Of a stretch of DNA of 64,000 nucleotides, positions 13,380 through 48,934 are shown one piece after another (the first letter of the stretch is position 1; each line of letters opens with the position of its first letter). Location of the stretch: contig JAXHNR010000002.1 of assembly GCA_034520215.1 (NCBI GenBank), positions 344,642 to 408,641 on the forward strand. The letters are read 5' to 3'. The notes below the pieces were generated by a model. It was given only the letters and a program-made list of their open reading frames with translations, made no database searches and was not told the origin of the DNA. The DNA is from Candidatus Krumholzibacteriota bacterium (lineage in GTDB: Bacteria; Krumholzibacteriota; Krumholzibacteriia; Krumholzibacteriales; WJIX01). The position numbers and the translations under genes are program-made.

Positions 13380-13381
13380 TT

Positions 13382-14674: not shown

Positions 14675-14678
14675 GCCA

Positions 14679-23654: not shown

Positions 23655-23657
23655 TTA

Positions 23658-24833: not shown

Positions 24834-24863
24834 GTACAAAATGGTTGTAAAATTTTAAAAAGA

Positions 24864-26120: not shown

Positions 26121-26121
26121 T

Positions 26122-30221: not shown

Positions 30222-30375
30222 TGTGTATTCCGGTGAAAGTTGCCACTCATTCCGGTTTTAACCTGCCACCCCTGAGGTACTTTCTATTCCCTGCTGTTTA
30301 ACCATACCAAAGTGGCAGGTTTGAATCAACGATTTGAGTACATTTTTCTCACAGATTCTCCTTTCAGTTCGATTC
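30222..30375 (-). repeat. IS21-family (type 2) right end, copy B (inverted relative to copy A)
   Basis: Reverse complement matches 21711-21866. The terminus faces 30222. Confidence 0.7.
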
Positions 30376-30742: not shown

Positions 30743-30774
30743 TTAGGTTACAATATAACCTAAAGGAGGAGTCC

Positions 30775-31365
30775 ATGACGCAGCAGAAGCAAGACTGGAT
30801 CAGGTCCAACGAGAGGGCGATGTGGTATTTTGGCGGTGTACCGGCGGCGATAGTACCTGACAACTTAAAAAGCGGTGTTACTCTCAGCAGCAGGTATGAA
30901 CCGGGCATTAATGATCTCCTCGATGATTTTGCCGGGTATTACAGGACGGTGATACTTCCTGCCAGAGCTGGTGCTCCCCGGGATAAGGCACTGGCTGAGA
31001 ACGGGGTAAAGCTGGTTTATCAGAGAATATATGCGCCTCTCAGAAACGAGATATTCCACTCTGTTGAGGAGATAAACGAAGCGATCCTTCCACTTCTGGG
31101 GCGTCATAATGATAAGCCATTCACGCGGCTTGGAGTATCCAGAAGGGAGCTGTTTGAGGAGATCGAGAAGAGCGAGCTTAAAGATCTTCCTGTAGAGAGA
31201 TATCCTCTCAAGTACTTCAAGAAGCAAAGGCATTCGGGGTTTAATGTTCATATCTCAGAAGCGATCCGGGCAGGTGACAAAGAGGCACTCACCCGGGTTG
31301 CCAGATATATGATGAGGAGCCCCGTAGTAATCTCACGACTAATCTATCACAGAGAAGCACAGTAG
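30775..31365 (+). pseudogene. istA: IS21-family transposase IstA, C-terminal fragment (type 2)
   Basis: WYFGGVPAAIVPDNLKSGV...DKALAENGVKLVYQRIYAPL is the conserved post-DDE IstA region. The matching N-terminus sits far away at 3050-3268 on the opposite strand. Confidence 0.7.
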
Positions 31366-31379
31366 GTCAGGATTAAAAA

Positions 31380-31800
31380 ACGTAACCCTGCAATCGGTGA
31401 TGAGATCGTCCTGGATGTACTCAGGTTTATCGCCAGGCTTTCGGTACAAATCCCGGATCCCCATGAGAGGATTGTCTTATACTACGGCCCATACTCGAAC
31501 GCCTCCGGCAGGCGCAGAACAACACAGGATGGAAAAGAACTGACACCGCCGGCAAAAGGCTTCTCGAGATCAGGTGAGAGTGAATACAGCAAGTCAAGAC
31601 GGATAAGCTGGGCTAAGCTGATAGCTAAAGTCTGGAAAGAGGACCACCTTCTCTGCAAAAAATGCTGAGGGAAAAATGAGGATTATTTCCTTTATCGCCG
31701 ATCCGGTGGTAATTGATAGGATTCTACGGACGCTTTGGCTGGAATCACTGCGATCAACCTCCTCCCCGTTATTATCCTCCGCTCCAGATCTGCAGCTCAC
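31380..31800 (+). pseudogene. IS91-family (rolling-circle Y2) transposase, C-terminal remnant, frameshifted
   Basis: Frame-shifted translations give ...RISWAKLIAKVWKEDHLLCKKC and ...IISFIADPVVIDRILRTLWL, the characteristic IS91/IS801 C-terminal zinc-finger tail. Confidence 0.45.
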
Positions 31801-32108
31801 CGCTAACCTGAAGCGGGGCGTATTAAGCGTAAGTTGTGTTACCTACAGAGGATGTTAGGTGGGGTGTGGTCTGATTTGGCCTTATCTCCCTACACCACAT
31901 CCAAACTTGCTTTATGGGCCCGGAACATGGCTGAAGAAAATTTCTCCATCCCTGAAATCAGAATAATGGCGACGAAGCACAGTATAAATGGGGCGCAAAA
32001 CCCCCTTGTTCGCACTTCCCCCGTTGACAGAAAAAATCGAATTTCTTATAATTATGGATAAATGATAAATAAATATTAGAATTACAAACTAAAACATATA
32101 AAAAACTC

Positions 32109-32939
32109 ATGGTTAATTGCTTATTTAAGTCATGGAAAGATATTATTCAGAATTCTATAGTAGAATTTTATAATGATATAGGAGATTCAGGCTTTATTGT
32201 AGGGAGTTTTCATGACGCGGAACTATTCATTGACCCAAAAGATATTGATGTGGCAATTATTTTTGATTACCTTGACACTGAAATGTTGCGGGTAGCAATA
32301 GAAAGAGCGGAGCTGTTATCACAAAAACTAAGCAATAATTTTGATTCTATAAATTTTATTCCCGAGTTTAAACAAGGACCAATTAAGCTAGCAAACAATA
32401 ATAAACAAAAACAAATCCATTTCTTCTTTTTTGAATATTCGGCAATCCAAAGGAAAAAAGGACATCCTTTCTTGTGTAGTTGGTTAATGAATAATTCTAG
32501 ACTTTTTGGCAAAGAATTGTCACAGATCATTAATGTAAGAGGTATTGATAGAAAAGTCCTAATTAATGATATTAATAATACCATTACTTCAATTAGTCAA
32601 GGAAAGATATGGTATTGGGAGTTTTATCAAAAAGAAAATAAGAACAAATTGAAAATGAAAATGGAATGGCAAAATGTCAATTCTAGAAATCAATATTTAG
32701 AACTTATTAGATATTCTAGACATATAATTCGTTCCTTTTTATTATATCTAACTGAAAATGACTCAAGTAAATCACAACTACTTATATCTGAATCCAATAG
32801 GATATTAGAATTGGAATTGTACAATAGAACTCATAATGAAATTGTGGAAAGTAAAAGATTTACATTTGATAAGGAAGTCTTTCATATTTTAAATTTTTTA
32901 CATACGGCAACTAACTATTTATCAAAACTTAAGGCTTAA
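32109..32939 (+). CDS. Pol-beta-superfamily nucleotidyltransferase-domain protein
   Basis: GSFHDAELFIDPKDIDVAII matches hG[GS]x9-13DxD. Confidence 0.45.
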   Translation: MVNCLFKSWKDIIQNSIVEFYNDIGDSGFIVGSFHDAELFIDPKDIDVAIIFDYLDTEMLRVAIERAELLSQKLSNNFDSINFIPEFKQGPIKLANNNKQKQIHFFFFEYSAIQRKKGHPFLCSWLMNNSRLFGKELSQIINVRGIDRKVLINDINNTITSISQGKIWYWEFYQKENKNKLKMKMEWQNVNSRNQYLELIRYSRHIIRSFLLYLTENDSSKSQLLISESNRILELELYNRTHNEIVESKRFTFDKEVFHILNFLHTATNYLSKLKA

Positions 32940-32941
32940 AC

Positions 32942-34564
32942 ATGATCGAATACGATATAATTATCCCAACCCATAAAAATTTTGATGAAAAAAAAGGATC
33001 AATTTTACCAACACTTTTAGGAATCTCTAATTTTATTGTTCAACCAATCAATGTATTCATAATAAGTAATGGCGATGATGAGAAAACAAAGAACCGTTTG
33101 CACGAAACATGTTCAATGTTTAAAAATGTAGTATTAATTGAAGAAAAAGTAGCAAATCGGGCTAAAGCAAGAAATATTGGTATTGGAAAAAGCAAATCAG
33201 ATTTTGTAATGTTTATGGATGATGATATAATAGTATCTCCTGAAGCAATTAATTTTTTCGTCAAAAATATATCTATGCATTCATTTCTATGTGGTGCTTG
33301 GAGACGCTATATTCCTCAAAATACTAAAGTCTCTACTATTAATGAATATTTAAAGCAGCAAAATTATCAGGATATAGATAATCTAGCTTCTGATGAACCA
33401 TCGTATAAACCCTCTCCTAAGGGAGAATATAATGGTTTACTACAACAATCGACATTTATATCGTGTTTTGGTGGAGCATCAAGAAAATGTATTAATGAAG
33501 TAGGTGGTTATGATGAAGAGTTTGAGGGATGGGGTCTTGAGGATACAGATCTAATGAGAAAATTAATACAAACTGTCAATTTTATTAGTATGGCTCCATC
33601 TTTGGTCTGGCATTATGATCATCTTGTTCAACCATATAGATGGAAAGAGCATTGGGGAATTAACTGGAATACTTATATTAAAAATTCAAAGGATAGAGGT
33701 TTTCTCATGCTTCGTGCCCTTTTTAATAAAAAAGAAGCTACAGTTAATGATGAAGAAGTATTGATCTCACCAAAAAATGAAAAAGCATATTCATTAATTC
33801 CAAAACAACTCAAGCCAATTTATCAAGCTCATTTAAAAGAGTGCGTTGATATATATTCTTCTGATTATTATTGTGTTGGTGTTATTCTATATGGTTCAGC
33901 ATTATATAGCGAAGAGCCCAGTGATTTTGATATTACAAAAATTGTATTTAAAGGGAAACAAGAGTTTAATTATTTTAATAGATCGATTATCCCAATTGAT
34001 GAACATATTATTGGTCTTTTTTCTATTAAACATTTTATTGATCATCCTTTTTATGATCCAAATAGATGGTTCATTATTGCGGGCAAATTTGCAGAAGGAT
34101 TATACCTGTGGCAAAATGTTAATATTAAAGAAAAAATTTCATATTGGATAGAAGAATCTATTAAGAGATTTTGGTTACATCTATTGTCCTACCATCTTGG
34201 TAGAGTTTTAAAATTGATAAATGAAGAACACTATATTGATAGATCAAAAGCATATTGGCACTTTTCTCTAATCCTTTGTTTCTCGAAATCAATATTCCCA
34301 ATAAAATATAGGTATCCATATTCCAATGACATAGACATTCAATCAATGCTAATAAACTTTGAGAATGAAATCATGCCATTAAAGTTATACGAAAGAAAAA
34401 AAGAGACATTAATAATTCTACAAAAATACATATTCGATATCGTAGCTAAATACGATAATAATCAAATATATCCCATATACTATCAGGACAGTTTAATTTC
34501 AATAAATGAGATTAAAAAAATCACTAAATCAGAAATACAATACAAATTAGCTCCATTAGGTTAA
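32942..34564 (+). CDS. family-2 glycosyltransferase fused to a nucleotidyltransferase-like C-terminal domain
   Basis: N-terminal IIIPTHKNF...GIGKSKSDFVMFMDDDIIVSPEA (GT2 with DDD). C-terminal VILYGSALYSEEPSDFDI (GS...DxD). Confidence 0.5.
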   Translation: MIEYDIIIPTHKNFDEKKGSILPTLLGISNFIVQPINVFIISNGDDEKTKNRLHETCSMFKNVVLIEEKVANRAKARNIGIGKSKSDFVMFMDDDIIVSPEAINFFVKNISMHSFLCGAWRRYIPQNTKVSTINEYLKQQNYQDIDNLASDEPSYKPSPKGEYNGLLQQSTFISCFGGASRKCINEVGGYDEEFEGWGLEDTDLMRKLIQTVNFISMAPSLVWHYDHLVQPYRWKEHWGINWNTYIKNSKDRGFLMLRALFNKKEATVNDEEVLISPKNEKAYSLIPKQLKPIYQAHLKECVDIYSSDYYCVGVILYGSALYSEEPSDFDITKIVFKGKQEFNYFNRSIIPIDEHIIGLFSIKHFIDHPFYDPNRWFIIAGKFAEGLYLWQNVNIKEKISYWIEESIKRFWLHLLSYHLGRVLKLINEEHYIDRSKAYWHFSLILCFSKSIFPIKYRYPYSNDIDIQSMLINFENEIMPLKLYERKKETLIILQKYIFDIVAKYDNNQIYPIYYQDSLISINEIKKITKSEIQYKLAPLG

Positions 34565-34766
34565 AAAGCTTGCAAAGAATGAGCAAAACATTGCTGCTCG
34601 TTTTACTTCTCGGTTTGAGCTGGGAAACAGATAATTCTTTCTCCCGATCTTATGGAAAGCTTTCAGTGTCTAGCGACAATTATTTTTCCCGTCTGGCGAC
34701 AATTAGAATTCCCGGTTATTAAGGGAATTGATAGACTGTCCAAGTCATGAGAATAAGGAGGCTTGG

Positions 34767-36143
34767 ATGGTCACGGACAGGCAGGTGAAATTACTGATGA
34801 AACTATTACAAAATGAGAAAACATTAAGGGTAGCTGCGGCGAAATCGGGTATGGATGAGAAGACAGCGAGGAAGTACCGGAAACTGGGGAAATCACCGAG
34901 TGAATTAAAGCGAGAATATAGTTGGCGAACCAGGAGGGATCCGTTTGCGGAGGTATGGGATGAGGTCAGCGCCATGTTGGGCTTGAATCCCGGATTGGAA
35001 GCGAAGACACTGTTTAAGGATTTGCAGAGACAATATCGGGGGCGATTTTCAGATGGGCAGCTTCGCACCTTTCAACGAAGGGTAAAAACGTGGAGAGCTA
35101 CAGAAGGGCCCTCGAAGGAAGTGTTTTTTGACCAGGTATACGAGCCTGGTGTTCTTTGCCAGTCTGATTTCACCAGTATGAACAAGTTGAATATCACTAT
35201 CGGGGGGCAACCGTTTGATCATTTGATCTACCATTTTATCCTGCCGTACTCGAACTGGGAGACAGGGACGATATGTTTCTCGGAGAGTTTTGAGAGTCTT
35301 TCAGAGGGTCTTCAGAACGCGCTATGGGAGCTTGGGGGAGTTCCGGTATCACACAGGACTGATCGTTTAACAACAGCGGTTCATAAGACTGTCCATCCGG
35401 AGGAATTCACCCGGCGTTATAAAGGTCTGCTGAAACACTATGGTCTAAGGGGCCAGAAAATACAGACAGCATCCCCGAACGAGAATGGTGATATTGAGCA
35501 GAGTCATTATAGGTTCAAGAAAGCGGCAGAGCAGTCTCTAATGCTTCGTGGCAGCAGGGACTTTGCCGACAGAAATGAATATTCCGGTTTCCTGGGCCAG
35601 ATATACGATCAGCTGAATTCTGGCCGCAGGGAGCGCTTTAAAGAGGAGCTGAAGGTGCTGCGGCGATTACCAGAAAGACGTCATGAGGCATGCAAACGTC
35701 TTGATGCGAGGGTAACACGCGGGAGTACTATAAGGGTTAACCATAACGTGTACTCAGTTGACGGCCGGTTGATCGGAGAGACTGTCAATGTTCGGCTCTA
35801 CGTTGAGCATCTTGAGGTCTGGTACGCTCAACGCCTGGTTGAGACCATCCCCCGGCAGAGAGGTGAAGGAAAGCATTATATCCAATACCGGCACATAATA
35901 GACTGGCTTGTCAGGAAGCCGGGAGCCTTCGAGAACTACCGCTACCGAGATGATCTTTTCCCAACGAGCCGTTTCAGGATGGCCTATGATGCGTTTAAAA
36001 GGAGGCATTCACAGCAAAAGGCGAGCAGAGAATATCTTCGGATACTATATCTGGCACCCAGAGAGAACGAAAAGCGTGTTAATGATGCGCTGCGTGTGCT
36101 GATGGGAATGCCATCATTACAGCCGATTCTGTCGAGGAGATAG
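34767..36143 (+). CDS. istA: IS21-family transposase IstA
   Basis: N-terminal HTH, DDE-type integrase core. ATG at 34767 is preceded by AAGGAGG. The track starts at 34728. Confidence 0.75.
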   Translation: MVTDRQVKLLMKLLQNEKTLRVAAAKSGMDEKTARKYRKLGKSPSELKREYSWRTRRDPFAEVWDEVSAMLGLNPGLEAKTLFKDLQRQYRGRFSDGQLRTFQRRVKTWRATEGPSKEVFFDQVYEPGVLCQSDFTSMNKLNITIGGQPFDHLIYHFILPYSNWETGTICFSESFESLSEGLQNALWELGGVPVSHRTDRLTTAVHKTVHPEEFTRRYKGLLKHYGLRGQKIQTASPNENGDIEQSHYRFKKAAEQSLMLRGSRDFADRNEYSGFLGQIYDQLNSGRRERFKEELKVLRRLPERRHEACKRLDARVTRGSTIRVNHNVYSVDGRLIGETVNVRLYVEHLEVWYAQRLVETIPRQRGEGKHYIQYRHIIDWLVRKPGAFENYRYRDDLFPTSRFRMAYDAFKRRHSQQKASREYLRILYLAPRENEKRVNDALRVLMGMPSLQPILSRR

Positions 36144-36243
36144 CACTCAGCGGCAATGAACCGGAGCCTGCCACTGATGTGAACATAGCAGATGTGGATC
36201 TCAGTGAGTATGACGCTCTTCTCGGTGAAAAGGAGGTGGCGAC

Positions 36244-37092
36244 ATGCTGAAAGCAGCAGAACAAAGAGATCTTCTTTTGAAATGCCTCAAGACTCTCCGG
36301 CTGCCGACAGTCCGTGAGTGTTACGAAGATCAGGCTGAAGAGGCAAGACGGGAAAGCTTAAGTTATGAGCATTATCTGTTAGAAGTTATGGAGCGTGAAC
36401 GCGAGGTTCGAGCCCAAAACCGTGTAATCCGGTTACTACGGCAATCGAAGCTGCCGTTGGAGAAAACAATAGATACTTTCGACAGGAACCGTCTTCCACG
36501 TAATGTTAACGCTCATCTCGATGTACTTCTGGAAGGTTCTTTTATAGACCGCAGAGAGAATGTGCTGGCCTTTGGTAATCCGGGCACTGGCAAGACTCAC
36601 CTTCTCTGTGCAATAGGGCAGGAACTGATCCATCAGGGCCGGAGAATCTATTTTAGACCGTGCAGTCCCCTGGTCCAGGATCTACTGGAAGCAAAGAGAG
36701 ACCTGAAACTTAAGCGACTACTGAAAAAACTGTCAAAATATGACGCGATCATCATTGATGATATAGGCTACGTGCAGCAGAACCGGGAAGAAATGGAAGT
36801 TTTGTTCGTTCTGCTAGCAGAACGATACGAAAGAGGCAGTGTGATGCTCACAAGCAATCTGCCGTTCTCAAAGTGGGAGAAAATCTTCAAAGATCCAATG
36901 GTAACTGCCGCAGCCATAGATCGACTTGTTCATCACAGCGTTATACTTGAACTCAATCTAGCCAGTTACAGATTAGAAGAATCAAACAAAGGAAGGAGAA
37001 ATAAAAAAACAAAATCGGCCACAAGAAAATCCAGAAACTATACCGGAAAGAAAAGGGAAAATTCATTGTCGTTAAAGAGAAAAAATAGTTGA
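36244..37092 (+). CDS. istB: IS21-family helper ATPase IstB
   Basis: Walker A GNPGTGKTHL, Walker B IIIDDIGY, and the IstB C-terminal tail. Confidence 0.75.
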   Translation: MLKAAEQRDLLLKCLKTLRLPTVRECYEDQAEEARRESLSYEHYLLEVMEREREVRAQNRVIRLLRQSKLPLEKTIDTFDRNRLPRNVNAHLDVLLEGSFIDRRENVLAFGNPGTGKTHLLCAIGQELIHQGRRIYFRPCSPLVQDLLEAKRDLKLKRLLKKLSKYDAIIIDDIGYVQQNREEMEVLFVLLAERYERGSVMLTSNLPFSKWEKIFKDPMVTAAAIDRLVHHSVILELNLASYRLEESNKGRRNKKTKSATRKSRNYTGKKRENSLSLKRKNS

Positions 37093-37448: not shown

Positions 37449-38093
37449 CTAATTAATTTCAATATAGTGACGTAAAATTGCTAACTCATAATTATTTATA
37501 AAGATATTTTTTGATTTATCCCTTGAATAGAGGATTATAAGTGCTTTTCCAACTTTTTCATAATTTTCATCATTGTAATGAGCATGAATTTGACAATTAT
37601 ATTTTGGAAAATCAAACCAAATAAACGGAGATCCGTTTTTATCTTTATCCTTTGTTGTTTTTGCCGGCTTAATATCCCCACTGAGAACTCCATTCATAAA
37701 TGCTTTGGAATTGAATTTCTTGTCTACTTCTTCCGGGTATTTTTGTCGGTTCTTATCTTCTTTCACTAGTTTTTGCTGTTCTTCATAATATGCTAATTTC
37801 TTTTTATTTTTTGAATGGACAAGCCCAGATATTAGTGACGGAAAAACTGGACACAGAATGCTAATCCAAAGTGCAGTTATTAAGTCACTTCCAGAAATGT
37901 GCTCACCTAGTATTGTGGCCAAAAGAAGAATAAGGAAATTGATAATCAGCAGCACTAGAAAACCAATAAAAAAAATCATAGACATAGCCTTTAATATGCT
38001 GCCACCATGGATAAGTTTAGTTGACTTATATTGTTTTGAATTCAACAGAGCCCCCTCTGGAATGAATCTATAATCTGCTCTATTTCCTCCCAT
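37449..38093 (-). CDS. hypothetical membrane protein (two N-terminal TM helices)
   Basis: ORF with hydrophobic N-terminus (IFFIGFLVLLIINFLILLLATILG). No known motif. Confidence 0.35.
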   Translation of the reverse strand: MGGNRADYRFIPEGALLNSKQYKSTKLIHGGSILKAMSMIFFIGFLVLLIINFLILLLATILGEHISGSDLITALWISILCPVFPSLISGLVHSKNKKKLAYYEEQQKLVKEDKNRQKYPEEVDKKFNSKAFMNGVLSGDIKPAKTTKDKDKNGSPFIWFDFPKYNCQIHAHYNDENYEKVGKALIILYSRDKSKNIFINNYELAILRHYIEIN

Positions 38094-39004
38094 TGCGAGT
38101 TGCTATAACTGAAGAAGTGCTTGGTATCATAAAACATATTCATCTTTTCACTCGTTACACTTTTAATCTGATTTTCTGTATTTTATGTCCCATCGAGAAT
38201 GCTAACGCTGCAGCTCTCTTGCGGCGGGGATTTCGATCACAGAACATCAATATACCACAGAAATTGAGACAAACGACTAATTCTAAATTTTGCACGGTGC
38301 CTCCGCCGTCAAGAGCAGCCACTTGATACTCATTGAGGCCTCCCCCTCAGCATACCACTGAGGTATAATAAAGATTAATCGGCTATTTTCACCTTTAACA
38401 AGGAGGAGAATTTTATCCCTTGACAAGGGAAGGCCTCATAGGTGTTATGCCCAAATATTGGACTGCTTCATATCTTTTTATTGTCTATATTTATATTATT
38501 TTTATTGATAGTCAAGAACTTTTTTCCGATTTACTTTTTCTTCAGTAAAAAAAGATGTAACGAAATTATGGACAAAGTATTTGTAATAGCCATATTCTTC
38601 ACGTCGAATATCTGAAAGGGTATCCGTAAATTTCATGTAAAACCATTGTTCCATTATATTTCGATCATGACAATTCATTTAACACTCTATGTACTTTTCC
38701 AATTATCATTAATACTTGGGGCATACAGTATACAGCACTGTATAACTAAATAACTGCATTATAAGCCTTCTGTATAACACGAATGAATTCACTTAATGAA
38801 CCATATTTTTTAACTCTTTTGATTCTTTTTTAATCAAAATCGTGAACCCTTGTCCGCTATTGTCCGGATATAAATATCTATATTGATATATAGCGAAAGA
38901 TAAAAGTGTCGAACTATATGCATTAAGTTGTGCTTATTACAATAAGCTAAGTTAATACAATAAGTTATGCAAATATTAACGATGGACTAAATGGAGGCAT
39001 TTAA

Positions 39005-39187
39005 ATGAAAAAAAATTCTATTTTGGCAAATTTTTCAGAAAAAAGACGCAAATTGATTACTAATTTAGTCAGTAAGCATCCCGAGTTGGCGGAAGATGCT
39101 GTAATGCCTACTGTTTCTGACATTTACAGTCATGCAGGTTCAGGCAGGGATGAAGAAGACGAATTTCTTAAAAAGAGTTTGAGATAG
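39005..39187 (+). CDS. 60-aa small protein, candidate substrate peptide of the downstream rSAM/SPASM enzyme
   Basis: Ends 3 nt before the rSAM start. RBS AATGGAGG. Acidic C-terminal half (SGRDEEDEFLKK). No Cys. Confidence 0.35.
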   Translation: MKKNSILANFSEKRRKLITNLVSKHPELAEDAVMPTVSDIYSHAGSGRDEEDEFLKKSLR

Positions 39188-39189
39188 TC

Positions 39190-40230
39190 ATGAAAAAAAT
39201 AAATTCAGAGCTGGAACCGGTTCCCCGGCGCTGTTCGTGGGAACTGACGCTTGGTTGTAATCTGAGCTGCTCGCACTGCGGATCTTCTGCAGGCCAGAAA
39301 CTTTCAGATGAACTCAATACAGAGGAAGCGTTCTCAGTCGCAGACCAATTGTCTGAAATGGGATGCCAGAATGTAACACTTCTGGGCGGAGAACCGTTTC
39401 TACGCGACGACTGGGATAAAATAGCTTCCCGGCTGGTATCTAACGGGATTGAGACCACGTTAATTTCTAATGGTGTGCTCGTAGATGATTCAGTGGTCCA
39501 TCGGTTAAGAGATGCTGGAGTAAGGTCATTAGGGTTAAGCGTTGACGGCCTCGAAAACACCCACAACCGATTAAGAGGAAGAAATGATGCTTTTGAAAAA
39601 GTTCTGAGAGCCTCTGAATTGGCAGTGAAGGCCGGTATCTCAGTATGTGCTGTAACGGTAGTACTGCCTGAGAATTTTCATGAACTCAATGACCTTGCGA
39701 GGATATTGGAATCTCGGGGAGCGAAATACTGGCAATTACAACTGCCAATTCCCTGCGGGCGTTACAAATTAAAAAGTTGGTTGAAGCCGGAAACAGCTAA
39801 AAAGCTTGTAGACTTTATCGCCGAAGTTCAGGATAATTCCAACCTGTTGACTTATGCGGGATGTAACGTCGGTTATCTTGGAGATAAGGAAGAAGTTATC
39901 CGAACCGCGCGAAATGAAGGGCTTGGTTTTTGGACTGGCTGCTATGCGGGCGTTCTCATGGTCGGAATAAGAAGTAATGGTGACGTGACAGGTTGTTTAA
40001 CCATGCCAGATGAACTTACAGCCGGGAATCTTCGAGATAAAAGCTTGAAAGAGATCTGGGAAGATAATGATTCCTTCAGTTACAACAGAACTTTTGACAG
40101 GAAATTTCTTGCTGGGGATTGTGCTGCGTGTGAACAATCAGATATTTGCCGGGGAGGGTGCAGAACTATGTCTTATTATTTGACAGGAGGTCTTTATGGC
40201 GATCCTTGCTGCGAATTGCAGGTTGGTTAA
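39190..40230 (+). CDS. radical SAM enzyme with SPASM domain
   Basis: CNLSCSHC matches CxxxCxxC. LLGGEPFL is present. C-terminal CAACEQSDICRGGCRT...CCE Cys cluster. Confidence 0.75.
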   Translation: MKKINSELEPVPRRCSWELTLGCNLSCSHCGSSAGQKLSDELNTEEAFSVADQLSEMGCQNVTLLGGEPFLRDDWDKIASRLVSNGIETTLISNGVLVDDSVVHRLRDAGVRSLGLSVDGLENTHNRLRGRNDAFEKVLRASELAVKAGISVCAVTVVLPENFHELNDLARILESRGAKYWQLQLPIPCGRYKLKSWLKPETAKKLVDFIAEVQDNSNLLTYAGCNVGYLGDKEEVIRTARNEGLGFWTGCYAGVLMVGIRSNGDVTGCLTMPDELTAGNLRDKSLKEIWEDNDSFSYNRTFDRKFLAGDCAACEQSDICRGGCRTMSYYLTGGLYGDPCCELQVG

Positions 40231-40265
40231 AATGAAGGTGGATTCTTAAAATAGGGAGGCGAATT

Positions 40266-41255
40266 ATGAGCACAAAAAAGATTATATCTTTATCAGCAAT
40301 AATTGTAGTAATTGTGGCAGTTGTTTTGGCTGTAGTTCTTTCTCAGAGGGAAGTTTCGGAGAGCCGCACTATCAGATTCGGCTACAGGCCAATTTCTCCG
40401 TCCATAGATTTCTTCGTGGCAATGGACCGGGGCTTTTTTGAAGACGAAGGTTTAAATGTTGAGGTTAAAATATTCAGGGGAAGCAGTGACCTTACTAACG
40501 CTGTAATGGCCGGAGATGTTGATTTCGCCTCGGATTTAGGTATGGTTACCCAATTGCTTCCCATGATGCGCACAGGGGAGTATAAGGTGCTCTTCCTATC
40601 TCTAGACCTGGACGCTTTAGATTCACCCATGCGTGGGCCCACACTTGTGGTAAAGAAAGGTATCGGGGTTAGCGGCATAGAAGATCTAAAGGGGAAAAGC
40701 GTAGGTATATTCCCTGGAGTCAATTTCAGAATATTCCTGGAGGCCGTTTTAAGTGAACACGGCATAGATGTAGAAAAAGACGTTAATGTTGTCCAGATTC
40801 CGCCGCAAGAGCAGATGACAGCGTTTAAATCAGTAGACGCTCTTTTATCACTCGATCCAATCACAAGCGGGATAGAGAAAAGGTACGATGCTGAGGTATT
40901 AGCGGATCGAGTTTCAGCCAGATATATCTTTGATAACTTTCCTGCGGCCGCATCGTCGGTTAATCGTGAATTTGCAGAAAAATATCCTGAAATAGTGGCG
41001 AAGGTGGAGAGAGTAATTTCGCGGGGAATAGATTTTGTCCGCGAAAATCCTGATCAAACCGTGGAATCGCTCGCTGAATGGACGAATTTGCCGGTTGAAA
41101 TCGCCAAGACGATGGAGCCAGTAAAATATGCCAAGCACAGCGAGATCGATGTTCAGCAGCTTCAGAGGGCATGTGACTATATTTATGATATTGATTGGCT
41201 TAAATTAAACAGTAACCTCGATGCGTCGCGGCTGGTTTGGAAAAAGAAAAGCTGA
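40266..41255 (+). CDS. ABC transporter substrate-binding protein, NMT1/THI5-SsuA/TauA-like
   Basis: N-terminal signal/TM. Family assignment is by overall sequence character and its position with the NitT/TauT-type ATPase and permease. Confidence 0.55.
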   Translation: MSTKKIISLSAIIVVIVAVVLAVVLSQREVSESRTIRFGYRPISPSIDFFVAMDRGFFEDEGLNVEVKIFRGSSDLTNAVMAGDVDFASDLGMVTQLLPMMRTGEYKVLFLSLDLDALDSPMRGPTLVVKKGIGVSGIEDLKGKSVGIFPGVNFRIFLEAVLSEHGIDVEKDVNVVQIPPQEQMTAFKSVDALLSLDPITSGIEKRYDAEVLADRVSARYIFDNFPAAASSVNREFAEKYPEIVAKVERVISRGIDFVRENPDQTVESLAEWTNLPVEIAKTMEPVKYAKHSEIDVQQLQRACDYIYDIDWLKLNSNLDASRLVWKKKS

Positions 41256-41293
41256 GTTTTTTAATCATCAGATAATGGGTTAGGACTTGTACT

Positions 41294-42073
41294 ATGTCTC
41301 ATGCGATTGAAATTAATAATCTGACCAAGAAATATAAACAATCAAGCGGGGGAAATGGCCAGGACATTTCTGCTCTTGAAGGGATTGATCTAACAATAGA
41401 ATCAGGGGAATTTGTAACTATTTTCGGTCCTAATGGATGCGGGAAAACAACCCTGCTGTTGTGTGTTGCCGGTATTGAAGAACCAAGTACCGGTTCGATC
41501 CTCATTAACGATCGTTCGCCGCATGAGGCGCTCACTGGGTTTGTTTTCCAAAATTACAGAGAAGCTTTACTTCCCTGGAGGTCCTGCCTTGATAATATTG
41601 CTTTTCCTTTAGAAATATCTGGAATAGACAAAAAGGAAAGTAGAAATCGAGCTGAACAAATAGTTGAAGATCTTTATTTAAATATTGATCTTCGAAGCTA
41701 CCCATACCAGCAGAGTGGCGGGCAGCAGCAACTTGTAGCAATAGCCCGAGCACTCGTTTCGGACCCGGACGTACTGGTAATGGACGAACCATTGAGCGCA
41801 CTGGATTTAAAAGCAAGATTTCGAATGCGTGCTACCATAGAAGAGATATGGCAGAGAACGAATAAAACCACTCTTCACGTATCTCATGATGTTGAAGAAG
41901 CGGTTTATCTATCAGATAAGATAGTCGTTCTGTCTGAGCGCCCTGGCAAGATATTGCGGGTGATACCAAATACTCTGGAGAGGCCCAGAGATCGAACGGC
42001 CGGTTCTGTTGCTTATAACGAGATGAGGAATAAAGTCTTAGAAATATTCCAGGCTAATGAGGAGATCCAATGA
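41294..42073 (+). CDS. ABC transporter ATP-binding protein (NitT/TauT family)
   Basis: Walker A GPNGCGKTTLL, ABC signature QSGGQQQ, Walker B VLVMDEP. Confidence 0.75.
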   Translation: MSHAIEINNLTKKYKQSSGGNGQDISALEGIDLTIESGEFVTIFGPNGCGKTTLLLCVAGIEEPSTGSILINDRSPHEALTGFVFQNYREALLPWRSCLDNIAFPLEISGIDKKESRNRAEQIVEDLYLNIDLRSYPYQQSGGQQQLVAIARALVSDPDVLVMDEPLSALDLKARFRMRATIEEIWQRTNKTTLHVSHDVEEAVYLSDKIVVLSERPGKILRVIPNTLERPRDRTAGSVAYNEMRNKVLEIFQANEEIQ

Positions 42074-42834
42074 AAATTTCATGTTGGGTTAATATAAAAA
42101 GGGGATTAATGGTTCCCCTGGCAGCGATAATTCTCTGGCAATTAATATCTTCATCCGGCCTGGTGAATCCTCTCTACATACCGAGCCCGTATCTAGTGGG
42201 TAATGCCGTTTTGCGACTCTTTGGGGAAGCAGATTTTTGGAAAGGAGCAGGCGCAACTTTATGGAGAATGTTTGCCGGTTTTGCCGTGGCGGCATCTGCC
42301 GGAATCCCCATTGGTATTGTTCTTGGTTATATGAAACGCGCCTATAAATATAGCGAATTTCTAATTGATTTCTCACGTTCTATTCCTGCAACGGCTCTAT
42401 ATCCGCTATTCATTCTCGCTTTCGGAATAGGAGACAGCTCAAAGGTCGCTATAGTGTCGTTTGCATGTTTTTTCGTAATATTAATTAATTCAATATACGG
42501 AGTCTGGAATGCGCCGAAGACAAGAGTTATTATGGCCAAGGCATTTCGCGCTAATGATTATCAGATATTTACAAAAATCATTCTTTTTGATGCTTTGCCT
42601 CAAATATTTGCCGGTTTAAGAAATGCGCTTTCGATAGCGCTTATTATGACAGTTGTAGCTGAAATGTTCATTGGAACAAATAGAGGGCTTGGATTCTTAA
42701 TTATGAATTCAAAACTGGCATACGATACTCCTACGATGTATGCAGTGATAATAATTCTCGGCGCTATCGGTTATATAGCGAGTCGCGGGTTATTATACAC
42801 TGAAAAAATGGTTATTCATTGGTCCAGAGTATAG
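42070..42834 (+). CDS. ABC transporter permease (NitT/TauT family)
   Basis: Six or more hydrophobic segments. Start overlaps the ATPase stop by 4 nt. Confidence 0.6.
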   Translation: MKISCWVNIKRGLMVPLAAIILWQLISSSGLVNPLYIPSPYLVGNAVLRLFGEADFWKGAGATLWRMFAGFAVAASAGIPIGIVLGYMKRAYKYSEFLIDFSRSIPATALYPLFILAFGIGDSSKVAIVSFACFFVILINSIYGVWNAPKTRVIMAKAFRANDYQIFTKIILFDALPQIFAGLRNALSIALIMTVVAEMFIGTNRGLGFLIMNSKLAYDTPTMYAVIIILGAIGYIASRGLLYTEKMVIHWSRV

Positions 42835-42847
42835 AAAGAGAAGAAAA

Positions 42848-43828
42848 TTGAGCAATTTTGAAGATGCAATTTTTAGGCAGATAAGGGGGTTGTGGACAGG
42901 CCATGCTCTTTTAGCGGCAAAGAAATTAGGAATTATGGAACTTCTTATGAAGTCAGGTCTATCAATTCCCCAGTTAGCGGATCAGCTATCTGTTGATGAG
43001 AGAGGGATGCGAGCTCTGATATCAACTTTAAGTGACATTGGGATAGTCAATAATGAGAACGATGTAATAAGTCTTACGGCATTAGGTAGAGAAACATCTC
43101 TTCCAGACAGGTCTTTATCTGGTTATATAAAATTTCACTCGTTGCTCAGCAATCATTGGGCGAATCTCGATAAATTACTTAAAAAGGGATCTTCGCTGCC
43201 AATTGATCCGAATATCTCTGTTTCTCCTGAAATTGTGAAATCGTATATTGAAGCTATGGATGCTCTTGGAATGCCCATTTCGGAAGAGCTTGTAAATGCT
43301 CTCGACATAAAATCTGGAGATAGAGTACTTGATTTAGGTGGGGGAAGCAGCGTACATGCACGTGCAATATTGTCAAAACATCCAGATGCTCAAGTAACAT
43401 TACTTGATAGACCCATTGTTATTAAACTTCTAAAAGAAGAATTTTCAGGGAAGTGGAATATATCCAAGAACTTAATTTTAACTGAAGGAGATTATTTGAA
43501 TTTAAGGAGTGATGAGAAATATGATATTATTCTTTTATCAAATATAATTCATAATGAAAGTAGTGATAATATTCTTAATATACTCGAGAGTTGCTCTAGG
43601 GTTCTTAATGAAGGTTCCCGTCTGGCGATTCTGGATTATTTTTACAGTGCTAATAATAAATTAACTTCATCACCTGCAGGATTTGATTTATTGTTGTATT
43701 TGATAACCAGCCATGGCAAAATACAGAATCTGGATTACATCGAAGACCTAGTTAAACAAGCGGGTTTCATAGAGCCTGTATATTCAGTGTTGGGCAATTA
43801 CCGTTTGGGTATTTACAGAAAAGCATGA
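42848..43828 (+). CDS. SAM-dependent O-methyltransferase (class I, with N-terminal dimerisation/HTH-like domain)
   Basis: VLDLGGGSSVHARAIL (motif I) and DIILLSNIIHNES (motif II-like). Confidence 0.6.
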   Translation: MSNFEDAIFRQIRGLWTGHALLAAKKLGIMELLMKSGLSIPQLADQLSVDERGMRALISTLSDIGIVNNENDVISLTALGRETSLPDRSLSGYIKFHSLLSNHWANLDKLLKKGSSLPIDPNISVSPEIVKSYIEAMDALGMPISEELVNALDIKSGDRVLDLGGGSSVHARAILSKHPDAQVTLLDRPIVIKLLKEEFSGKWNISKNLILTEGDYLNLRSDEKYDIILLSNIIHNESSDNILNILESCSRVLNEGSRLAILDYFYSANNKLTSSPAGFDLLLYLITSHGKIQNLDYIEDLVKQAGFIEPVYSVLGNYRLGIYRKA

Positions 43829-43836
43829 GGTAGCTT

Positions 43837-45795
43837 TTGAGCAAGGAAAAGGATTTGTTCAGCCTGGTTCATCGCATACGCCCAAGAATGGAATTCTCAA
43901 AATACCTGCGTTCCTTAAAAAATACAAATGATCATAAAAATATTCGATTATATTTAGACCGTGTAATGAAGTCCGGTGATTACCCCGCACATATTGAGAA
44001 TTTCTTAAGCTTGTCTTTCAGGACTATACAGGATGAATTAATTTTACCTTTCCTCAAGGCAAATCCTCTTGATTTGAAGAACAATTGGAATATTATCTCT
44101 GGGGCTTTCACATATTTCTCCGGTGAAGCCGGGAAGGCCATTCCCTATTTCTTAAATTGGGATAAGACAGACGGCAAAGTGCAGCATTCAGTAAATCCGG
44201 GTTTTAAAATGTATTGCGATACCTTGAGATCTCAATCTAATGAAAACGAAATCTGTAATCATCCCGATATTGAAAACATACATGAATGTCCAGAATTGCG
44301 AAATTGCCTAGGCAAATTTCTCGACAGGATTAAATATACTGGTAGCCGACTTATTGAGAGAAAATTACCTGTAAGATCATTTATCTCATTTGAATTAGAA
44401 AAACTAAATGAAGTAGCATCCAATGATGCTGAAGCACAACGTGTATTTACAGAGCTGAAAAAATTAGCAGATATTGCTCCAGGCAAATCTATCGTTGAAA
44501 ACGATTCTATAAGATCTTCTTCTTCCATAAAAAAGGAGCTGGCTGAGACAGCTGATTTCCTTAGCCCAGATGTTCTAGATCTGGTTGTGGATATCTACGA
44601 ACAATTTAAATCAACAGCCCTTTTCCCACTATCAAATGGCAAATTCAATGAATCAGAAAGGAAAATGTCGAACAAATTACAACTAGAAAACATTAATTAC
44701 CTTTCAACGGAAAATTTGGAAACGGGCCATGATTATTCTCTTAAGGAATTCGCCAATCTTGTATTATCTTTGTCGGTTATTTACCAGGCGCCCTATTTTT
44801 ATCTGTTGCATTTTGGGCCGGCAATTAAAGAAGAAAGAGATGATGATTTTCCGGTCGGTACCGGTACGCTGGCAATTAACAGTTTTATGCTTAGGGATGA
44901 ACTTCTCAGCTATATAAGTCTGCTGGCCGATACGGCCATATCCTCTATTTCAAAAGCAGAAGCGGTAGTGCTCCAACACAGGCACGAGACTACAAAAAGA
45001 AACCTTCTTCTTGCTGAAAGTGCTTATGGAGTTGGCCATACTCAAAAAGACAGGTTTACCAGACTTCGGGGGCAGCTTGAAAACGCTGAAGATTATTTGT
45101 CCCCTGATCTTCTTGATTCGGCCGAAGCTGCTGTATGGGTAAGTAAAGCGAGAGCAAGCGCGAAAAAGGCAGCAGATAGTTCAACAACAATGGATTTTAT
45201 GGCTAACTTGTTTCAAGTTAACGGGGAGATCGAAAAAGTGGATTCCAGATTCTTTCCGGAAGAAGATGAAGGACCATACAACATTCACGAACATCTAAAA
45301 GATGAAATAAAGACTTTTGATGTGCCTTTCGAGTTGAACGCTAGTAATATTGAAAATCTACGTATTATCGATAATGTTGATGAAAATAAAAGAAGATTAT
45401 ATGATGAATTTTATGATGACATATTGCACGAATTATTAGCAAATGCAGTAAAAGCAACTACAGATAATATTGTACAACTGGAAATTAATTATCAGCCAAT
45501 AGATTTAAAATTAGATAATTCTAAAGATAAATTTGAATGCCTTGTAATATCAAATGAAACCAGGTATAGTGATTTTGAAAGCAGGCTTGGGCTTTCTGTT
45601 GGGAATTGGACTGAATGGGATATCGGGGAGAAAGGGCCAAAAGGCGCTTTAAGGCAAATCGCCATTCGTCTAAAAGCGACAAATCAGGGGCTCCTATTAG
45701 CCAAACCTGATTTAAAAAATGATAAATATTACTTTAGGATTGGTCTTTATTTATTCAATATGATAAATAGAACTAATGATAAACATGGGGGTTAG
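43837..45795 (+). CDS. cytoplasmic histidine-kinase-like protein (HATPase_c at C-terminus, degenerate G1 box)
   Basis: N-box LHELLANAVKAT. G2-like ESRLGLSVG. Candidate H-box QHRHETTKRNL. No TM segments. Confidence 0.4.
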   Translation: MSKEKDLFSLVHRIRPRMEFSKYLRSLKNTNDHKNIRLYLDRVMKSGDYPAHIENFLSLSFRTIQDELILPFLKANPLDLKNNWNIISGAFTYFSGEAGKAIPYFLNWDKTDGKVQHSVNPGFKMYCDTLRSQSNENEICNHPDIENIHECPELRNCLGKFLDRIKYTGSRLIERKLPVRSFISFELEKLNEVASNDAEAQRVFTELKKLADIAPGKSIVENDSIRSSSSIKKELAETADFLSPDVLDLVVDIYEQFKSTALFPLSNGKFNESERKMSNKLQLENINYLSTENLETGHDYSLKEFANLVLSLSVIYQAPYFYLLHFGPAIKEERDDDFPVGTGTLAINSFMLRDELLSYISLLADTAISSISKAEAVVLQHRHETTKRNLLLAESAYGVGHTQKDRFTRLRGQLENAEDYLSPDLLDSAEAAVWVSKARASAKKAADSSTTMDFMANLFQVNGEIEKVDSRFFPEEDEGPYNIHEHLKDEIKTFDVPFELNASNIENLRIIDNVDENKRRLYDEFYDDILHELLANAVKATTDNIVQLEINYQPIDLKLDNSKDKFECLVISNETRYSDFESRLGLSVGNWTEWDIGEKGPKGALRQIAIRLKATNQGLLLAKPDLKNDKYYFRIGLYLFNMINRTNDKHGG

Positions 45796-45797: not shown

Positions 45798-47396
45798 ATG
45801 ATGGCGGCAGGTTTTGACAAAATCCGCATTCTGCTTTTAGATGATAGAGACAGTCTCAGACCTCAGGACGGACTTTCTCCGAGATTAAAGAAATGGTTCG
45901 ACGTAAAATGGATTGCTACACCATCAGAAGCTCGTGCCTATAGGGATTCATCATGGGTTTGTATAACCAGAGAACCTGAATTGTTAAATAAACTTGGATG
46001 GGTGCCAGAAATATTTGTAATTGATTACGCGCTGACACAAGAAGAAATCCCTGTATTAGATAGAGTTAGAAGAAATAAAGATAAGTATACAGATTTGAGC
46101 CCCTTGCCCAACCTTGAGGATGCTCTTTCCAAACTTGGAATTAGTAGTTCAGGCATATCAGTCTTGAAGGAACCGCCGGTAACACCGTCTGCTGGAAGTG
46201 AATTCTGGGGCTGTTATATTGGTGGCCTTATTCTATCTACCTTCGCGGATTATCCAGTTTCAGCCGTTACAATAACAAGATATGGCGAGTCGGACTTCTT
46301 AGAAAATGCCAAGGATGTAGCATTTTTTGAATGGATGATGGAAAAACAGACAAATACTCAATTAAAGGGTACGGGAGCAAAAAGTTTGGATTGGACTGAA
46401 ATAATTTCTGAGGGTGCCATAAAACTCCGTGAAAGGATTAAGCAACTTGCCAGCATTGGTATAATAACATTGGACCTCGAGGATATTTTGCAGCTTATCC
46501 ATAATACAAGCCACCCAACAGTATCATATTCCTCAAGATATGGAAAAAGAAGTTTGCCAGTTCAAGGCCTATTTATAGATGAACGTGATGAAAAAGTAAG
46601 AAAAGAAAAAGCCAAGAAATGGGCCGAAGAAATAATCGAAGAAGCCTTGACTTATATGGAGAAAGGATCTGAACCAGAGGAATATGTAAGTACTTTAGAT
46701 CAAATTGAAGAAGGTTTAGGAGTAGCTAGAGACCTCTGGGATAAATGGGAAGGCGAAGAAGTGCCCCAACATATGGAATGTTCAAGAATATTCGGGCAAG
46801 TACAACAGGTAGTTAAAGCGGGCGAAAGAGATTTAAAAGAAGATGAAATAAAAGAACTGGATAGATGGTGCGCTAAATATGACTTAGTCCTGGAAGACGT
46901 TATAAATACTTTAAAAAAAAGAAAGTATACTCTTAAGACAGATGGGGGGGATATTAGAGCCTATAATTGTGATGTTATTGTAAAAAGGTGGGCTATTCTC
47001 TTCACGATTGTAAGGCTTGCAATTATTGCATGGCATGCCTCAAGGGAATTGGACCGTGATATAAGAATTTCCTCTCACGACGTATATATGGCACTTTTCC
47101 CCCTGGCAATTAACCTGCCTTATTATCTGCATGAGCCTATGGGTAAAGAATCAGGTGAGCATACAAAATATTTGAAAAGATTAAATAGAGACGGATCCAC
47201 TTCAAGCGGCTGGGGTGAAATTGGGATAAGTGTCGTTGATGTATTAGCAGGCAAAGATTTTGACGAAAATTCACATGGGTTATTTTCGTTTGAAAGGAAA
47301 ATTCTTCGAATGTTCTCTGTAGGGCTTGGTTGTGGCAACAGACAGAACTTAAAGAAAGGTTCTGTTTTGAATAACATATTATTTGGACCTTTTTGA
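45798..47396 (+). CDS. hypothetical protein with a degenerate receiver-like N-terminus
   Basis: IRILLLDDRD followed by EIFVIDYAL, which is the spacing of acidic pocket and phospho-Asp in receiver domains. The rest is unknown. Start overlaps the upstream stop. Confidence 0.3.
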   Translation: MMAAGFDKIRILLLDDRDSLRPQDGLSPRLKKWFDVKWIATPSEARAYRDSSWVCITREPELLNKLGWVPEIFVIDYALTQEEIPVLDRVRRNKDKYTDLSPLPNLEDALSKLGISSSGISVLKEPPVTPSAGSEFWGCYIGGLILSTFADYPVSAVTITRYGESDFLENAKDVAFFEWMMEKQTNTQLKGTGAKSLDWTEIISEGAIKLRERIKQLASIGIITLDLEDILQLIHNTSHPTVSYSSRYGKRSLPVQGLFIDERDEKVRKEKAKKWAEEIIEEALTYMEKGSEPEEYVSTLDQIEEGLGVARDLWDKWEGEEVPQHMECSRIFGQVQQVVKAGERDLKEDEIKELDRWCAKYDLVLEDVINTLKKRKYTLKTDGGDIRAYNCDVIVKRWAILFTIVRLAIIAWHASRELDRDIRISSHDVYMALFPLAINLPYYLHEPMGKESGEHTKYLKRLNRDGSTSSGWGEIGISVVDVLAGKDFDENSHGLFSFERKILRMFSVGLGCGNRQNLKKGSVLNNILFGPF

Positions 47397-48306: not shown

Positions 48307-48763
48307 ACTGTTCTCCCTTAGGGTTAATCTTTGTATAAGAATCATAAAATGAGGGTTTAATTACTATCATTTCCCGCACAGGTAAATGTTTTCCTGGTGA
48401 ATAAATAATGTCCAAACTTATGGGCCTCTATTTTTATATGCAGATATATTCCAAAAATTCAGACAATCACTGACAGAAGATGTAAACTGTCTGAAGCTTT
48501 AATTTTCTTTTAATTTATATAAATCGTGATTACGAAATTGTCCTTTAAGTGTCGTCGACAATTGTCCGTAATTTTCTCTGTTCAAATTATAATTGGGTAG
48601 AAGCGAATAATTCTTGTAAAACAATTCTGATTGTACCTGTCAGTAAATGTCAGAAAACTTATTATCCTAAAAGATATATAAGCAGCAGGTAAAAATTTCT
48701 GGGCAAAAAGCCCCGTTGCCCACAAAACAGAAAACGACTAGGGGTAGAAAGAGAGGAGATGAA

Positions 48764-48934
48764 ATGGAATCATTCGAAAAGGATATTATTCGCCAGTCAA
48801 GTATGCCGCTTGAGGATGGGGGTGACACGCATTTTCATCCCTGGAGTGATGGGAATGGATTCACTGTGACTACACGCCTTCCCGGTGGTGATGCATTCTA
48901 CGAAAATTTTGAAATTGATAGTTTTAATCAGTGA
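48764..48934 (+). CDS. small hypothetical protein (56 aa from internal ATG)
   Basis: RBS AGAGAGGAG precedes the ATG at 48764 (MESFEKDIIRQ...). Confidence 0.3.
   Translation: MESFEKDIIRQSSMPLEDGGDTHFHPWSDGNGFTVTTRLPGGDAFYENFEIDSFNQ

Follow-up and report, generated by a model that had tools for sequence, protein, structure and literature searches.

A conserved eight-gene cassette

We analysed a stretch of 64,000 nucleotides (nt), hereafter the window, from a metagenome-assembled genome (MAG) of Candidatus Krumholzibacteriota, which holds what looks like a rare, mobile operon of eight genes. These encode a peptide of 60 amino acids (aa), a radical S-adenosylmethionine/SPASM enzyme (rSAM), the substrate-binding protein (SBP), ATPase and permease of an ATP-binding cassette (ABC) importer, an O-methyltransferase (O-MT) and two further proteins that we term X and Y (Table 1). 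An earlier reading of the same DNA, made without database searches (the sequence-only reading), had placed the open reading frames (ORFs) from the peptide through the O-MT at 39005-43828; these positions hold, and Pfam agrees with the identities given to the rSAM/SPASM enzyme, SBP, ATPase, permease and O-MT alike. The start of that interval was correct and its end too early, as X and Y were missed and the conserved unit runs to 47396; the gap between the small ORF and the rSAM gene, given as 3 nt, is 2 nt when counted from stop to ATG.

Comparative loci, referred to here by L numbers, were collected from the genomic contexts of rSAM relatives (45-66% identity) and from a metagenome scan using the SBP as query. 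Eleven distinct loci with the same gene order were found, and the order of the six genes from peptide to O-MT is identical in every locus where the contig allows; X follows the O-MT in nine loci and Y follows X in six. Identity to the window proteins is 64-76% for the SBP, 59-72% for the permease and 55-69% for the ATPase, with the rSAM intermediate; it is low for the O-MT (29-47%) and also for the fast-evolving X and Y (22-60%).

The small peptide and its probable radical SAM/SPASM partner

A small ORF of 54-81 aa is present beside the rSAM gene in all 11 loci, including L022, where it was missed by the gene finder, and its stop lies anywhere from 20 nt inside to 2 nt before the rSAM start, indicative of translational coupling. 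The peptides share the block L-[P/S/A]-[T/G]-[V/I/F]-x-D-[I/V]-Y-[S/C]-[H/Y/C]-[P/A/T/Q], which opens at position 38-41 of the peptide (at 32 in L015 as initially called); outside this block the N-terminal region and tail vary freely. The Asp and Tyr of the core are invariant in 11/11 peptides, and the core Ser is replaced by Cys in L022. Codons under the invariant residues vary synonymously (four for Pro, four for Thr, three for Leu, three for Ile, two for Tyr and two for Ser), the remaining two frames are stop-ridden and Shine-Dalgarno sites precede most starts; the small ORF is therefore a gene under purifying selection. The sequence-only reading had made conservation of this ORF in homologous loci a check on its proposal, and the 11 syntenic loci bear it out. 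It had also described a Cys-free peptide with an SDIYSHAGSG core and an acidic tail. The window peptide does lack Cys and does carry that sequence; across the family, DIYS and the preceding LPTV block are conserved whereas AGSG is not, and the acidic tail is peculiar to the window, other tails being basic or polar. A small conserved precursor-like gene with a conserved core lies beside a putative maturase, as in pairs of the RiPP type (peptides synthesised ribosomally, then modified post-translationally).

The enzyme belongs to the radical SAM/SPASM superfamily by both of its hallmarks, the cluster motif of PF04055 and the seven-Cys SPASM domain for two auxiliary clusters: CX3CX2C (C23/C27/C30) is kept in 11/11 members, and all seven SPASM cysteines (C225, C251, C269, C314, C320, C324 and C341) are kept in all of them. 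Its closest sequences in the PDB are SkfB, PqqE (6c8v, 5.5e-16), the anaerobic sulfatase-maturating enzyme (anSME) and SuiB (5v1q, 3.7e-12). A search of NCBIfam gave 79 matches, zero at or above the curated cutoff, and assignment to a named family was rejected on that ground; the classification foreseen by the sequence-only reading failed, with no PqqE, MftC, SkfB, AlbA-type or other family cutoff reached. The top matches are peptide maturases, namely nif11-class maturase 3 (TIGR04103), with 225.4 bits against a cutoff of 725, and the GDL-trio peptide maturase (TIGR03913), with 196.6 bits against 592. MftC (TIGR03962) scores 137.7 bits against 265, and the precursor core is internal, not a C-terminal Val-Tyr; PqqE (TIGR02109) scores 106.9 bits against 381. 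A relationship with anSME had been named beforehand as a finding that would count against a RiPP-type role. The enzyme stands apart from that family (TIGR03942, 64.6 bits against 349, ranking about 24th), and the peptide motif, [S/C]-x-[P/A/T/Q]-x, is without Arg.

In a neighbour-joining tree the cassette rSAMs are monophyletic with respect to two cassette-less outgroups, P0020 and P0022, and their three clades correspond exactly to the core variants ending in SH, SY and [S/C]C. This co-diversification of peptide and rSAM is the strongest computational argument for the peptide as the partner of the enzyme, and it supports regarding the two as a putative precursor/maturase pair. Of the interpretation offered by the sequence-only reading, the conserved peptide and the non-anSME enzyme have thus survived, and the placement in a named family and the regulatory motif discussed below have not. 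The Ser-to-Cys exchange in L022 and the His/Tyr/Cys variation one residue further on suggest that the chemistry involves these side chains. The equivalence of Ser and Cys ahead of x-Pro/Ala is reminiscent of anSME substrates; bridges of the (thio)ether or C-C kind would be equally possible.

Among species-representative genomes, more distant rSAM relatives from Myxococcales and Deltaproteobacteria MAGs (39-41% identity) were rejected as members since they are fusions with Cys-rich tails and lack the cassette. Two rSAM/SPASM relatives with 41% identity (L009 1414-3132 and L012 ~10001-11746) bear a ~220-aa Cys/Pro/Asp-rich C-terminal extension with repeated CCDC(D/E)YMGP motifs, a separate and likewise uncharacterised architecture.

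Table 1. Features of the cassette and its candidate operator, in window positions.
Feature	Position	Strand	Remarks
Candidate operator, direct repeat TGTCCGctatTGTCCG	38851..38866	+	154 nt upstream of peptide ATG
60-aa precursor-like peptide	39005..39187	+	Preceded at 8 nt by a GGAGG ribosome-binding site; 2 nt between its stop and the rSAM ATG
Conserved core PTVSDIYSH, residues 35-43 of peptide	39107..39133	+	
Radical SAM/SPASM enzyme, 346 aa	39190..40230	+	PF04055 7.3e-34, PF13186 2e-8
NMT1/SsuA-like SBP, membrane-anchored or lipoprotein, 329 aa	40266..41255	+	PF09084, PF13379 (NMT1/NMT1_2)
ABC ATPase, NitT/TauT group, 259 aa	41294..42073	+	PF00005 (ABC_tran) 6e-28
ABC importer permease, 254 aa	42070..42834	+	PF00528 (BPD_transp_1) 1.5e-19
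O-methyltransferase with N-terminal dimerisation (winged-helix) domain, 326 aa	42848..43828	+	PF00891 Methyltransf_2, PF08100 Dimerisation
Protein X, 652 aa, cytoplasmic, without known domain	43837..45795	+	Homologs after O-MT in 9 loci
Protein Y, 532 aa: REC-like N-terminal domain and ~350-aa helical domain without structural match	45798..47396	+	

The importer and the methyltransferase

The transporter is an importer, not an exporter. It has the parts that define the NitT/TauT type, an extracytoplasmic SBP of NMT1/SsuA fold, a BPD_transp_1 permease and an ABC ATPase, each recognised by Pfam. The SBP is the most conserved protein of the cassette, with 77% mean column identity across 7 loci, and its N-terminal hydrophobic membrane anchor or lipobox (KD19 3.33) places it outside the cytoplasm; together, its conservation and its anchor argue that the system imports a fixed ligand. 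The conservation of the SBP parallels the invariant peptide core, which fits such a ligand. At the level of equivalogs the SBP falls short of every cutoff (SsuA_fam 108.9 against 163.5, TauA 43.6 against 304, SaoX 37.2 against 300). The best NCBIfam matches of the ATPase are SaoA, PhnT2 and TauB-like, all below cutoff, and the permease is SaoP/SsuC/TauC-like, again below the NCBIfam cutoffs. The selenocysteine-assisted organometallic (SAO) system was considered, as SaoA and SaoP are the top transporter matches, and rejected: SaoA (223.6 against 360) and SaoP (135.4 against 295) miss their cutoffs, and the published locus architecture is unrelated.

The closest solved relatives of the O-MT are MmcR, DtpM, MfnG and CalO1, which are phenolic small-molecule O-methyltransferases. 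It is plausible that the product would be transported and methylated, as had been proposed before.

Proteins X and Y

Neither X nor Y has a match in Pfam, NCBIfam, PADLOC or the sequences of the PDB. An exhaustive HMMER search gave only 35 representative clusters, which share the C-terminal module of X (~residues 380-645), with conserved residues at H401, E532/N536, N573, G600-L605 and T615/G618. Its motifs GH..K.R, E...NA, GP.GGL and T..G are spaced as in histidine kinases, resembling the H-box, N-box and G-box. Searches for X as a histidine kinase with Pfam (X and 10 relatives), phmmer against the PDB and two PDB profile searches gave no statistical support, and a kinase-like X is put forward here as a hypothesis suggested by motif spacing. 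The N-terminal domain of Y looks REC-like, and its acidic pocket is conserved. A natural fusion, P0158 (889 aa), joins a class I methyltransferase domain to the C-terminal module of X, which hints at a functional link between methylation and this module.

The upstream region

Upstream of the peptide gene lies a stretch of AT-rich non-coding DNA, estimated beforehand at about 900 base pairs (bp), and indeed ~910 bp without a large ORF (38094-39004), with a GC content of 0.34 in the bin 38001-39000. The sequence-only reading had singled out a repeated motif here, CTGTATAAC, as possibly regulatory. The motif occurs as two exact copies only (38738 and 38770) and is absent from the other loci; with one mismatch it occurs 12 times in the window against 10.3 expected from shuffles. 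Being neither enriched nor conserved, it was rejected as a regulatory motif. One copy is contained in a palindrome, ATACAGcaCTGTAT, at 38727-38742, and an 18-nt tandem direct repeat, TTATTACAATAAGCTAAG / TTAATACAATAAGTTATG, lies at 38934-38969, 35-70 nt upstream of the peptide ATG; neither the palindrome nor the tandem repeat was seen in other loci.

A different element is conserved, a direct repeat of TGTCMG (period 10-11 nt) that lies 70-250 nt upstream of the peptide ATG and on the coding strand in every case. Such repeats lie within 350 nt upstream in 8/9 loci with X-type genes, where 0.06-0.3 hexamers per 350 nt would be expected, and the repeats of L003 (one of its two copies) and L024 share an identical 20-nt sequence. 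In L007, where the position of Y is taken by a sigma-54 activator, the element is absent; the repeats there differ, and a sigma-54 promoter close to consensus lies at -62. The pair is also absent in L014, where the downstream genes are unrelated and include a 965-aa protein; a REC match there is weak. This covariation of operator and regulator, in small numbers, suggests that the regulator of the cassette acts on its own promoter. A search for a riboswitch in the leader gave only sub-threshold chance matches.

A second operator-like copy, TGTCAGtaaaTGTCAG, at 48638-48653, lies ~125 nt upstream of a 56-aa ORF (48764-48934) with a GGAG ribosome-binding site. Behind this ORF come one of 108 aa, rich in Cys, another of 129 aa and a gene for a transglycosylase-like membrane protein of 734 aa. 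TGTCAGtaaaTGTCAG may be a second target of the same regulator. The genes downstream of it were rejected as members of the cassette since they have no homologs in the other loci.

Distribution and mobility

The cassette is scarce: at a threshold of at least 50% identity there are 17 enzyme clusters among 5.8 billion proteins, and 241 million metagenome records yielded five loci. A search of known plasmids and viral contigs found none that carries it, and a search of the literature found neither the motif nor this combination of genes described. Transposases flank the cassette in four other loci (L002, L004, L005 and L007). In L014 a tRNA-Met gene (3888-3962, corresponding to L020 3747-3821) lies ~170 nt upstream of the peptide gene, which suggests that this cassette sits at a tRNA-associated island insertion site. 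GC content differs widely between loci, and one Y homolog comes from a Phycisphaerae MAG. Flanking transposases, the tRNA-Met site, the spread in GC content and the Phycisphaerae homolog together argue that the cassette moves horizontally between phyla.

Two features of the flanks in other loci are recorded here. A gene combining DUF4062 and HATPase_c_4 lies upstream of the cassette in L007 (1-1064) and L024 (162-1685), loci that otherwise differ, and may be a recurrent island neighbour. In L005/L006, and in this pair only, ExbD and MotA/ExbB genes (2725-3459) lie in a divergent operon adjoining the cassette.

Neighbouring genes in the window

Around the cassette, mobile and defence genes form a mosaic across the window. 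At 5458-21620 lies a BREX-like defence set comprising DUF6079 (1242 aa), a YhcG-type PDDEXK nuclease, a 981-aa DNA methylase, an AAA_21 ATPase with DUF4276, a SNF2-family helicase and a PglZ protein. It is followed by a low-GC block (21942-34564, 0.28-0.32) with a carbamoyltransferase, methyltransferases, glycosyltransferases, a NadA-like protein, a PIG-L deacetylase and, at 27020-28030, a non-SPASM radical SAM protein; this block looks like a horizontally acquired glycan-modification cluster. Between these low-GC sugar genes and the region upstream of the cassette sits an IS21-like element (34728-37092, GC ~0.48), its IstA-like (471 aa) and IstB-like (282 aa) proteins assigned by sequence features. 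Downstream of the cassette are DNA methyltransferases of the restriction-modification type and an FtsK-like gene. A further radical SAM protein at 803-2119 (438 aa; Radical_SAM and Fer4_12, no SPASM by Pfam), after a 209-aa ORF without a Pfam match, is presumably the first of the two rSAM enzymes that the sequence-only reading had counted, and is unrelated to the cassette.

Discussion

Gene content, synteny, conservation, co-diversification of peptide and enzyme, and covariation of operator and regulator have been established computationally, and on this footing we propose a model for the cassette. On strong comparative evidence, the 60-aa product would be a ribosomal precursor: its N-terminal ~37 residues would serve as the recognition or leader region, and its invariant core, D-I-Y-[S/C]-[H/Y/C], would be the site modified by the co-translated rSAM/SPASM enzyme. 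The enzyme may abstract a hydrogen at or beside the Tyr-Ser/Cys dyad. Given the interchange of Ser and Cys, it would most likely either oxidise Ser/Cys to formylglycine or form a (thio)ether or C-C bridge to a neighbouring residue. The O-MT, being of the phenol/small-molecule type, would cap a hydroxyl group, either the Tyr phenol or a derivative of it, and host peptidases would trim the product. The small product would reach the periplasm or the exterior and be recaptured by the NMT1-type SBP and the ABC importer. Finally, X (kinase-like) and the receiver-like protein Y would respond to it and activate the operon through the TGTCMG repeats, closing an autoinducing loop for which there is partial support. 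That the cassette is a self-contained, horizontally mobile operon which produces and then reimports a ligand derived from a peptide, under its own regulation, is the reading we tentatively favour, at somewhat less than an even chance. The fuller version, in which several uncultured lineages share a circuit that makes, recaptures and senses its product, with a new SPASM clade turning the invariant D-I-Y-[S/C] core of a ribosomal peptide into a small O-methylated ligand, reimport of the NitT/TauT type, by a class of transporter not known for cargo derived from peptides, and a new X/Y pair acting on TGTCAG repeats, we consider doubtful.

Parts of this design are familiar. As in the pathway of pyrroloquinoline quinone (PQQ; PqqA/PqqE/PqqD), the gene of a SPASM enzyme is immediately preceded by that of a short precursor, free of Cys and with a small invariant core that includes Tyr, and the product ultimately formed would be a small molecule cut out of the peptide; unlike that pathway, the cassette lacks the E-x3-Y motif, PqqD or another RiPP recognition element (RRE) and PqqB/C/F, its peptide has 54-81 aa rather than the ~24 aa of PqqA, and it carries an importer, an O-MT and regulators instead. 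Mycofactocin likewise arises when a SPASM enzyme acts on a small peptide whose core contains Val/Tyr, yielding a small product of the redox-cofactor type, and its product is also decorated by a methyltransferase. Its precursor ends in a C-terminal GVY, whereas the cassette core is internal, and the cassette is without the MftB RRE, the MftE peptidase and MftD. Like the cassette enzyme, anSME has no RRE, and it accepts Ser or Cys at one fixed position followed by x-Pro/Ala, where the cassette core reads [S/C]-x-[P/A/T/Q] with Ser and Cys interchanging; the substrate in the cassette, in contrast, would be a dedicated 60-aa peptide rather than a sulfatase, and the motif is without Arg at +4. The nif11-class 3 and GDL-motif maturases, the best-scoring families, are SPASM enzymes paired with small precursors as well, but the scores amount to under a third of the cutoffs (725 and 592), the peptide has neither a nif11 leader nor a GDL motif, and neither family has been described with the importer, O-MT, X and Y set.

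For the later steps of the model, the closest parallels are of another kind. In methanobactin (mbn) and RRNPP-type signalling, a ribosomal peptide product is released and retaken through a linked binding-protein-dependent system under dedicated regulators, which is the logic of release and reuptake that we propose; the enzymology there is MbnBC or none, the binding proteins are of the Opp/Dpp type rather than the NMT1 type, and the regulators are unrelated. The streptide-type RaS-RiPP system (StrA/StrB/StrC) similarly combines precursor and SPASM enzyme in one operon under a dedicated signal-responsive regulator. It differs in that StrB/SuiB have an N-terminal RRE and act on Lys-Trp, in that it encodes an exporter instead of an importer, and in being a Firmicutes system with Rgg/SHP regulators.

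A number of observations weigh against our model. The tetrapyrrole-related rSAM enzymes AhbD (182.3 bits), NirJ2 (161.9) and NirJ (150.2), all short of a cutoff of 500, score nearly as high as the peptide maturases, and as no family cutoff is reached, a RiPP-type function is read from the gene context rather than from assignment to a family. With its rSAM domain beginning at residue 18, the enzyme has no N-terminal extension of RRE size, and neither Pfam nor NCBIfam gave a PqqD-like match in any cassette protein; some SPASM maturases function without an RRE. The usual ligands of NitT/TauT binding proteins are small anions or heterocycles rather than peptides, so that the product would need heavy trimming, and no protease or exporter was found among the variable trailing genes or in any locus. 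On the sensory side, hhalign gave a probability of 6-11% for homology of X to a canonical kinase, and Y has no recognisable DNA-binding domain; Y, including its C-terminal domain, has no PDB sequence match and nothing significant by Foldseek. X and Y evolve fast while their presumed ligand is invariant, which would be odd for ligand receptors. L019 has X and lacks TGTCMG, and TGTCA-type direct repeats resemble Pho boxes, to which a PhoB-type regulator of the host could bind. Lastly, the biochemistry of the individual steps is inferred from sequence.

Some of these points would sit well with a pathway in which an imported compound is transformed by the rSAM and the O-MT, in salvage, catabolism or detoxification, and the 60-aa product, instead of being the substrate, assists the rSAM as a small accessory subunit, as a chaperone or as a regulator. 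The enzyme is without an RRE and is of the size of AhbD and NirJ, which score 150-182 bits against 225 for the top match; inducible operons for the use of small molecules commonly consist of an importer, an O-MT and two-component-like regulators, and in them the missing protease and exporter would cause no surprise; the second-best match of the ATPase is a phosphonate-transporter ATPase, and the operator is Pho-box-like. We nevertheless regard such a pathway as unlikely, as conservation of the peptide in a ~10-residue block amid variable sequence is what a modified core would show, rather than a folded subunit, the interchange of Ser/Cys and of His/Tyr/Cys tracks the enzyme clades and suggests reactive side chains, and the best family matches of the rSAM are peptide maturases. 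A peptide-derived metallophore, in which a chelator built on the D/Y/[S/C]/[H/Y/C] core is released, loaded with metal and reimported while X and Y sense metal status or the loaded complex, would keep the precursor role of the peptide. Asp, Tyr, Ser/Cys and His/Tyr/Cys are all classical metal ligands, and biosynthesis and importer combined in one operon, as here, are typical of metallophore clusters such as the methanobactin mbn operon and those of opine metallophores. The horizontal spread of the cassette as an accessory trait would also suit a metallophore, as would the ExbB/ExbD genes adjoining it in L005/L006, but this neighbourhood occurs in one locus only. An SBP of the NMT1/SsuA type is not the usual class for metal chelates, there is no exporter or TonB-dependent receptor in the cassette, and O-methylation would mask a phenolate ligand; we think a metallophore rather unlikely.

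The setting of the cassette in the window, between the BREX-like set and the restriction-modification-type DNA methyltransferases and next to IS21, raises the question of a conflict or anti-phage module, with X and Y as sensor and effector and the modified peptide or imported molecule as toxin or alarm signal. The transposases flanking L002, L004, L005 and L007, the DUF4062-HATPase_c_4 gene upstream in L007 and L024, the tRNA gene adjoining the L014 cassette and the fast evolution of X, Y and the O-MT would all be in keeping with this. PADLOC, however, yields only a generic pVip match to the rSAM domain (73.6 bits) and none for X, Y, the SBP or the peptide, and with no system-specific match a defence system was rejected. 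It is hard to see what a high-affinity importer would do in defence, viral contigs and plasmids lack the cassette, and the island location may reflect mobility only, so that we hold a conflict module to be improbable. As for the small ORF being a chance or mis-called frame beside an ordinary sulfonate/taurine uptake operon and an unrelated rSAM, only the generic SsuA/TauA family resemblance speaks for it. Against it stand eleven conserved peptides with purifying selection at the codon level, strict synteny and Ssu/Tau equivalog scores far below cutoff; the conservation of the peptide and its co-diversification with the rSAM refute a chance frame, to which we assign a negligible probability.

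Pairs of a Cys-free peptide and a radical SAM/SPASM enzyme have repeatedly led to new chemistry and new cofactors, as with PQQ, mycofactocin and streptide. The cassette offers a compact test case of this kind, with a monophyletic enzyme clade that has no curated family and a precursor in which two residues are invariant and a Ser/Cys switch is informative. Its highly conserved SBP could serve as an affinity reagent for the product. It also exposes, in X and Y, two protein families without a database match that go with a covarying, conserved operator. If the product of the pathway is the ligand of the importer, this would be the first transporter of the NitT/TauT type tied to a ribosomal peptide product, and a rare case, beyond the Firmicutes, of a bacterium that senses by import a peptide derivative of its own making. 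Should the full circuit of making, recapturing and sensing prove true, it would represent a new class of RiPP-derived signal or cofactor together with a new family of signalling proteins.

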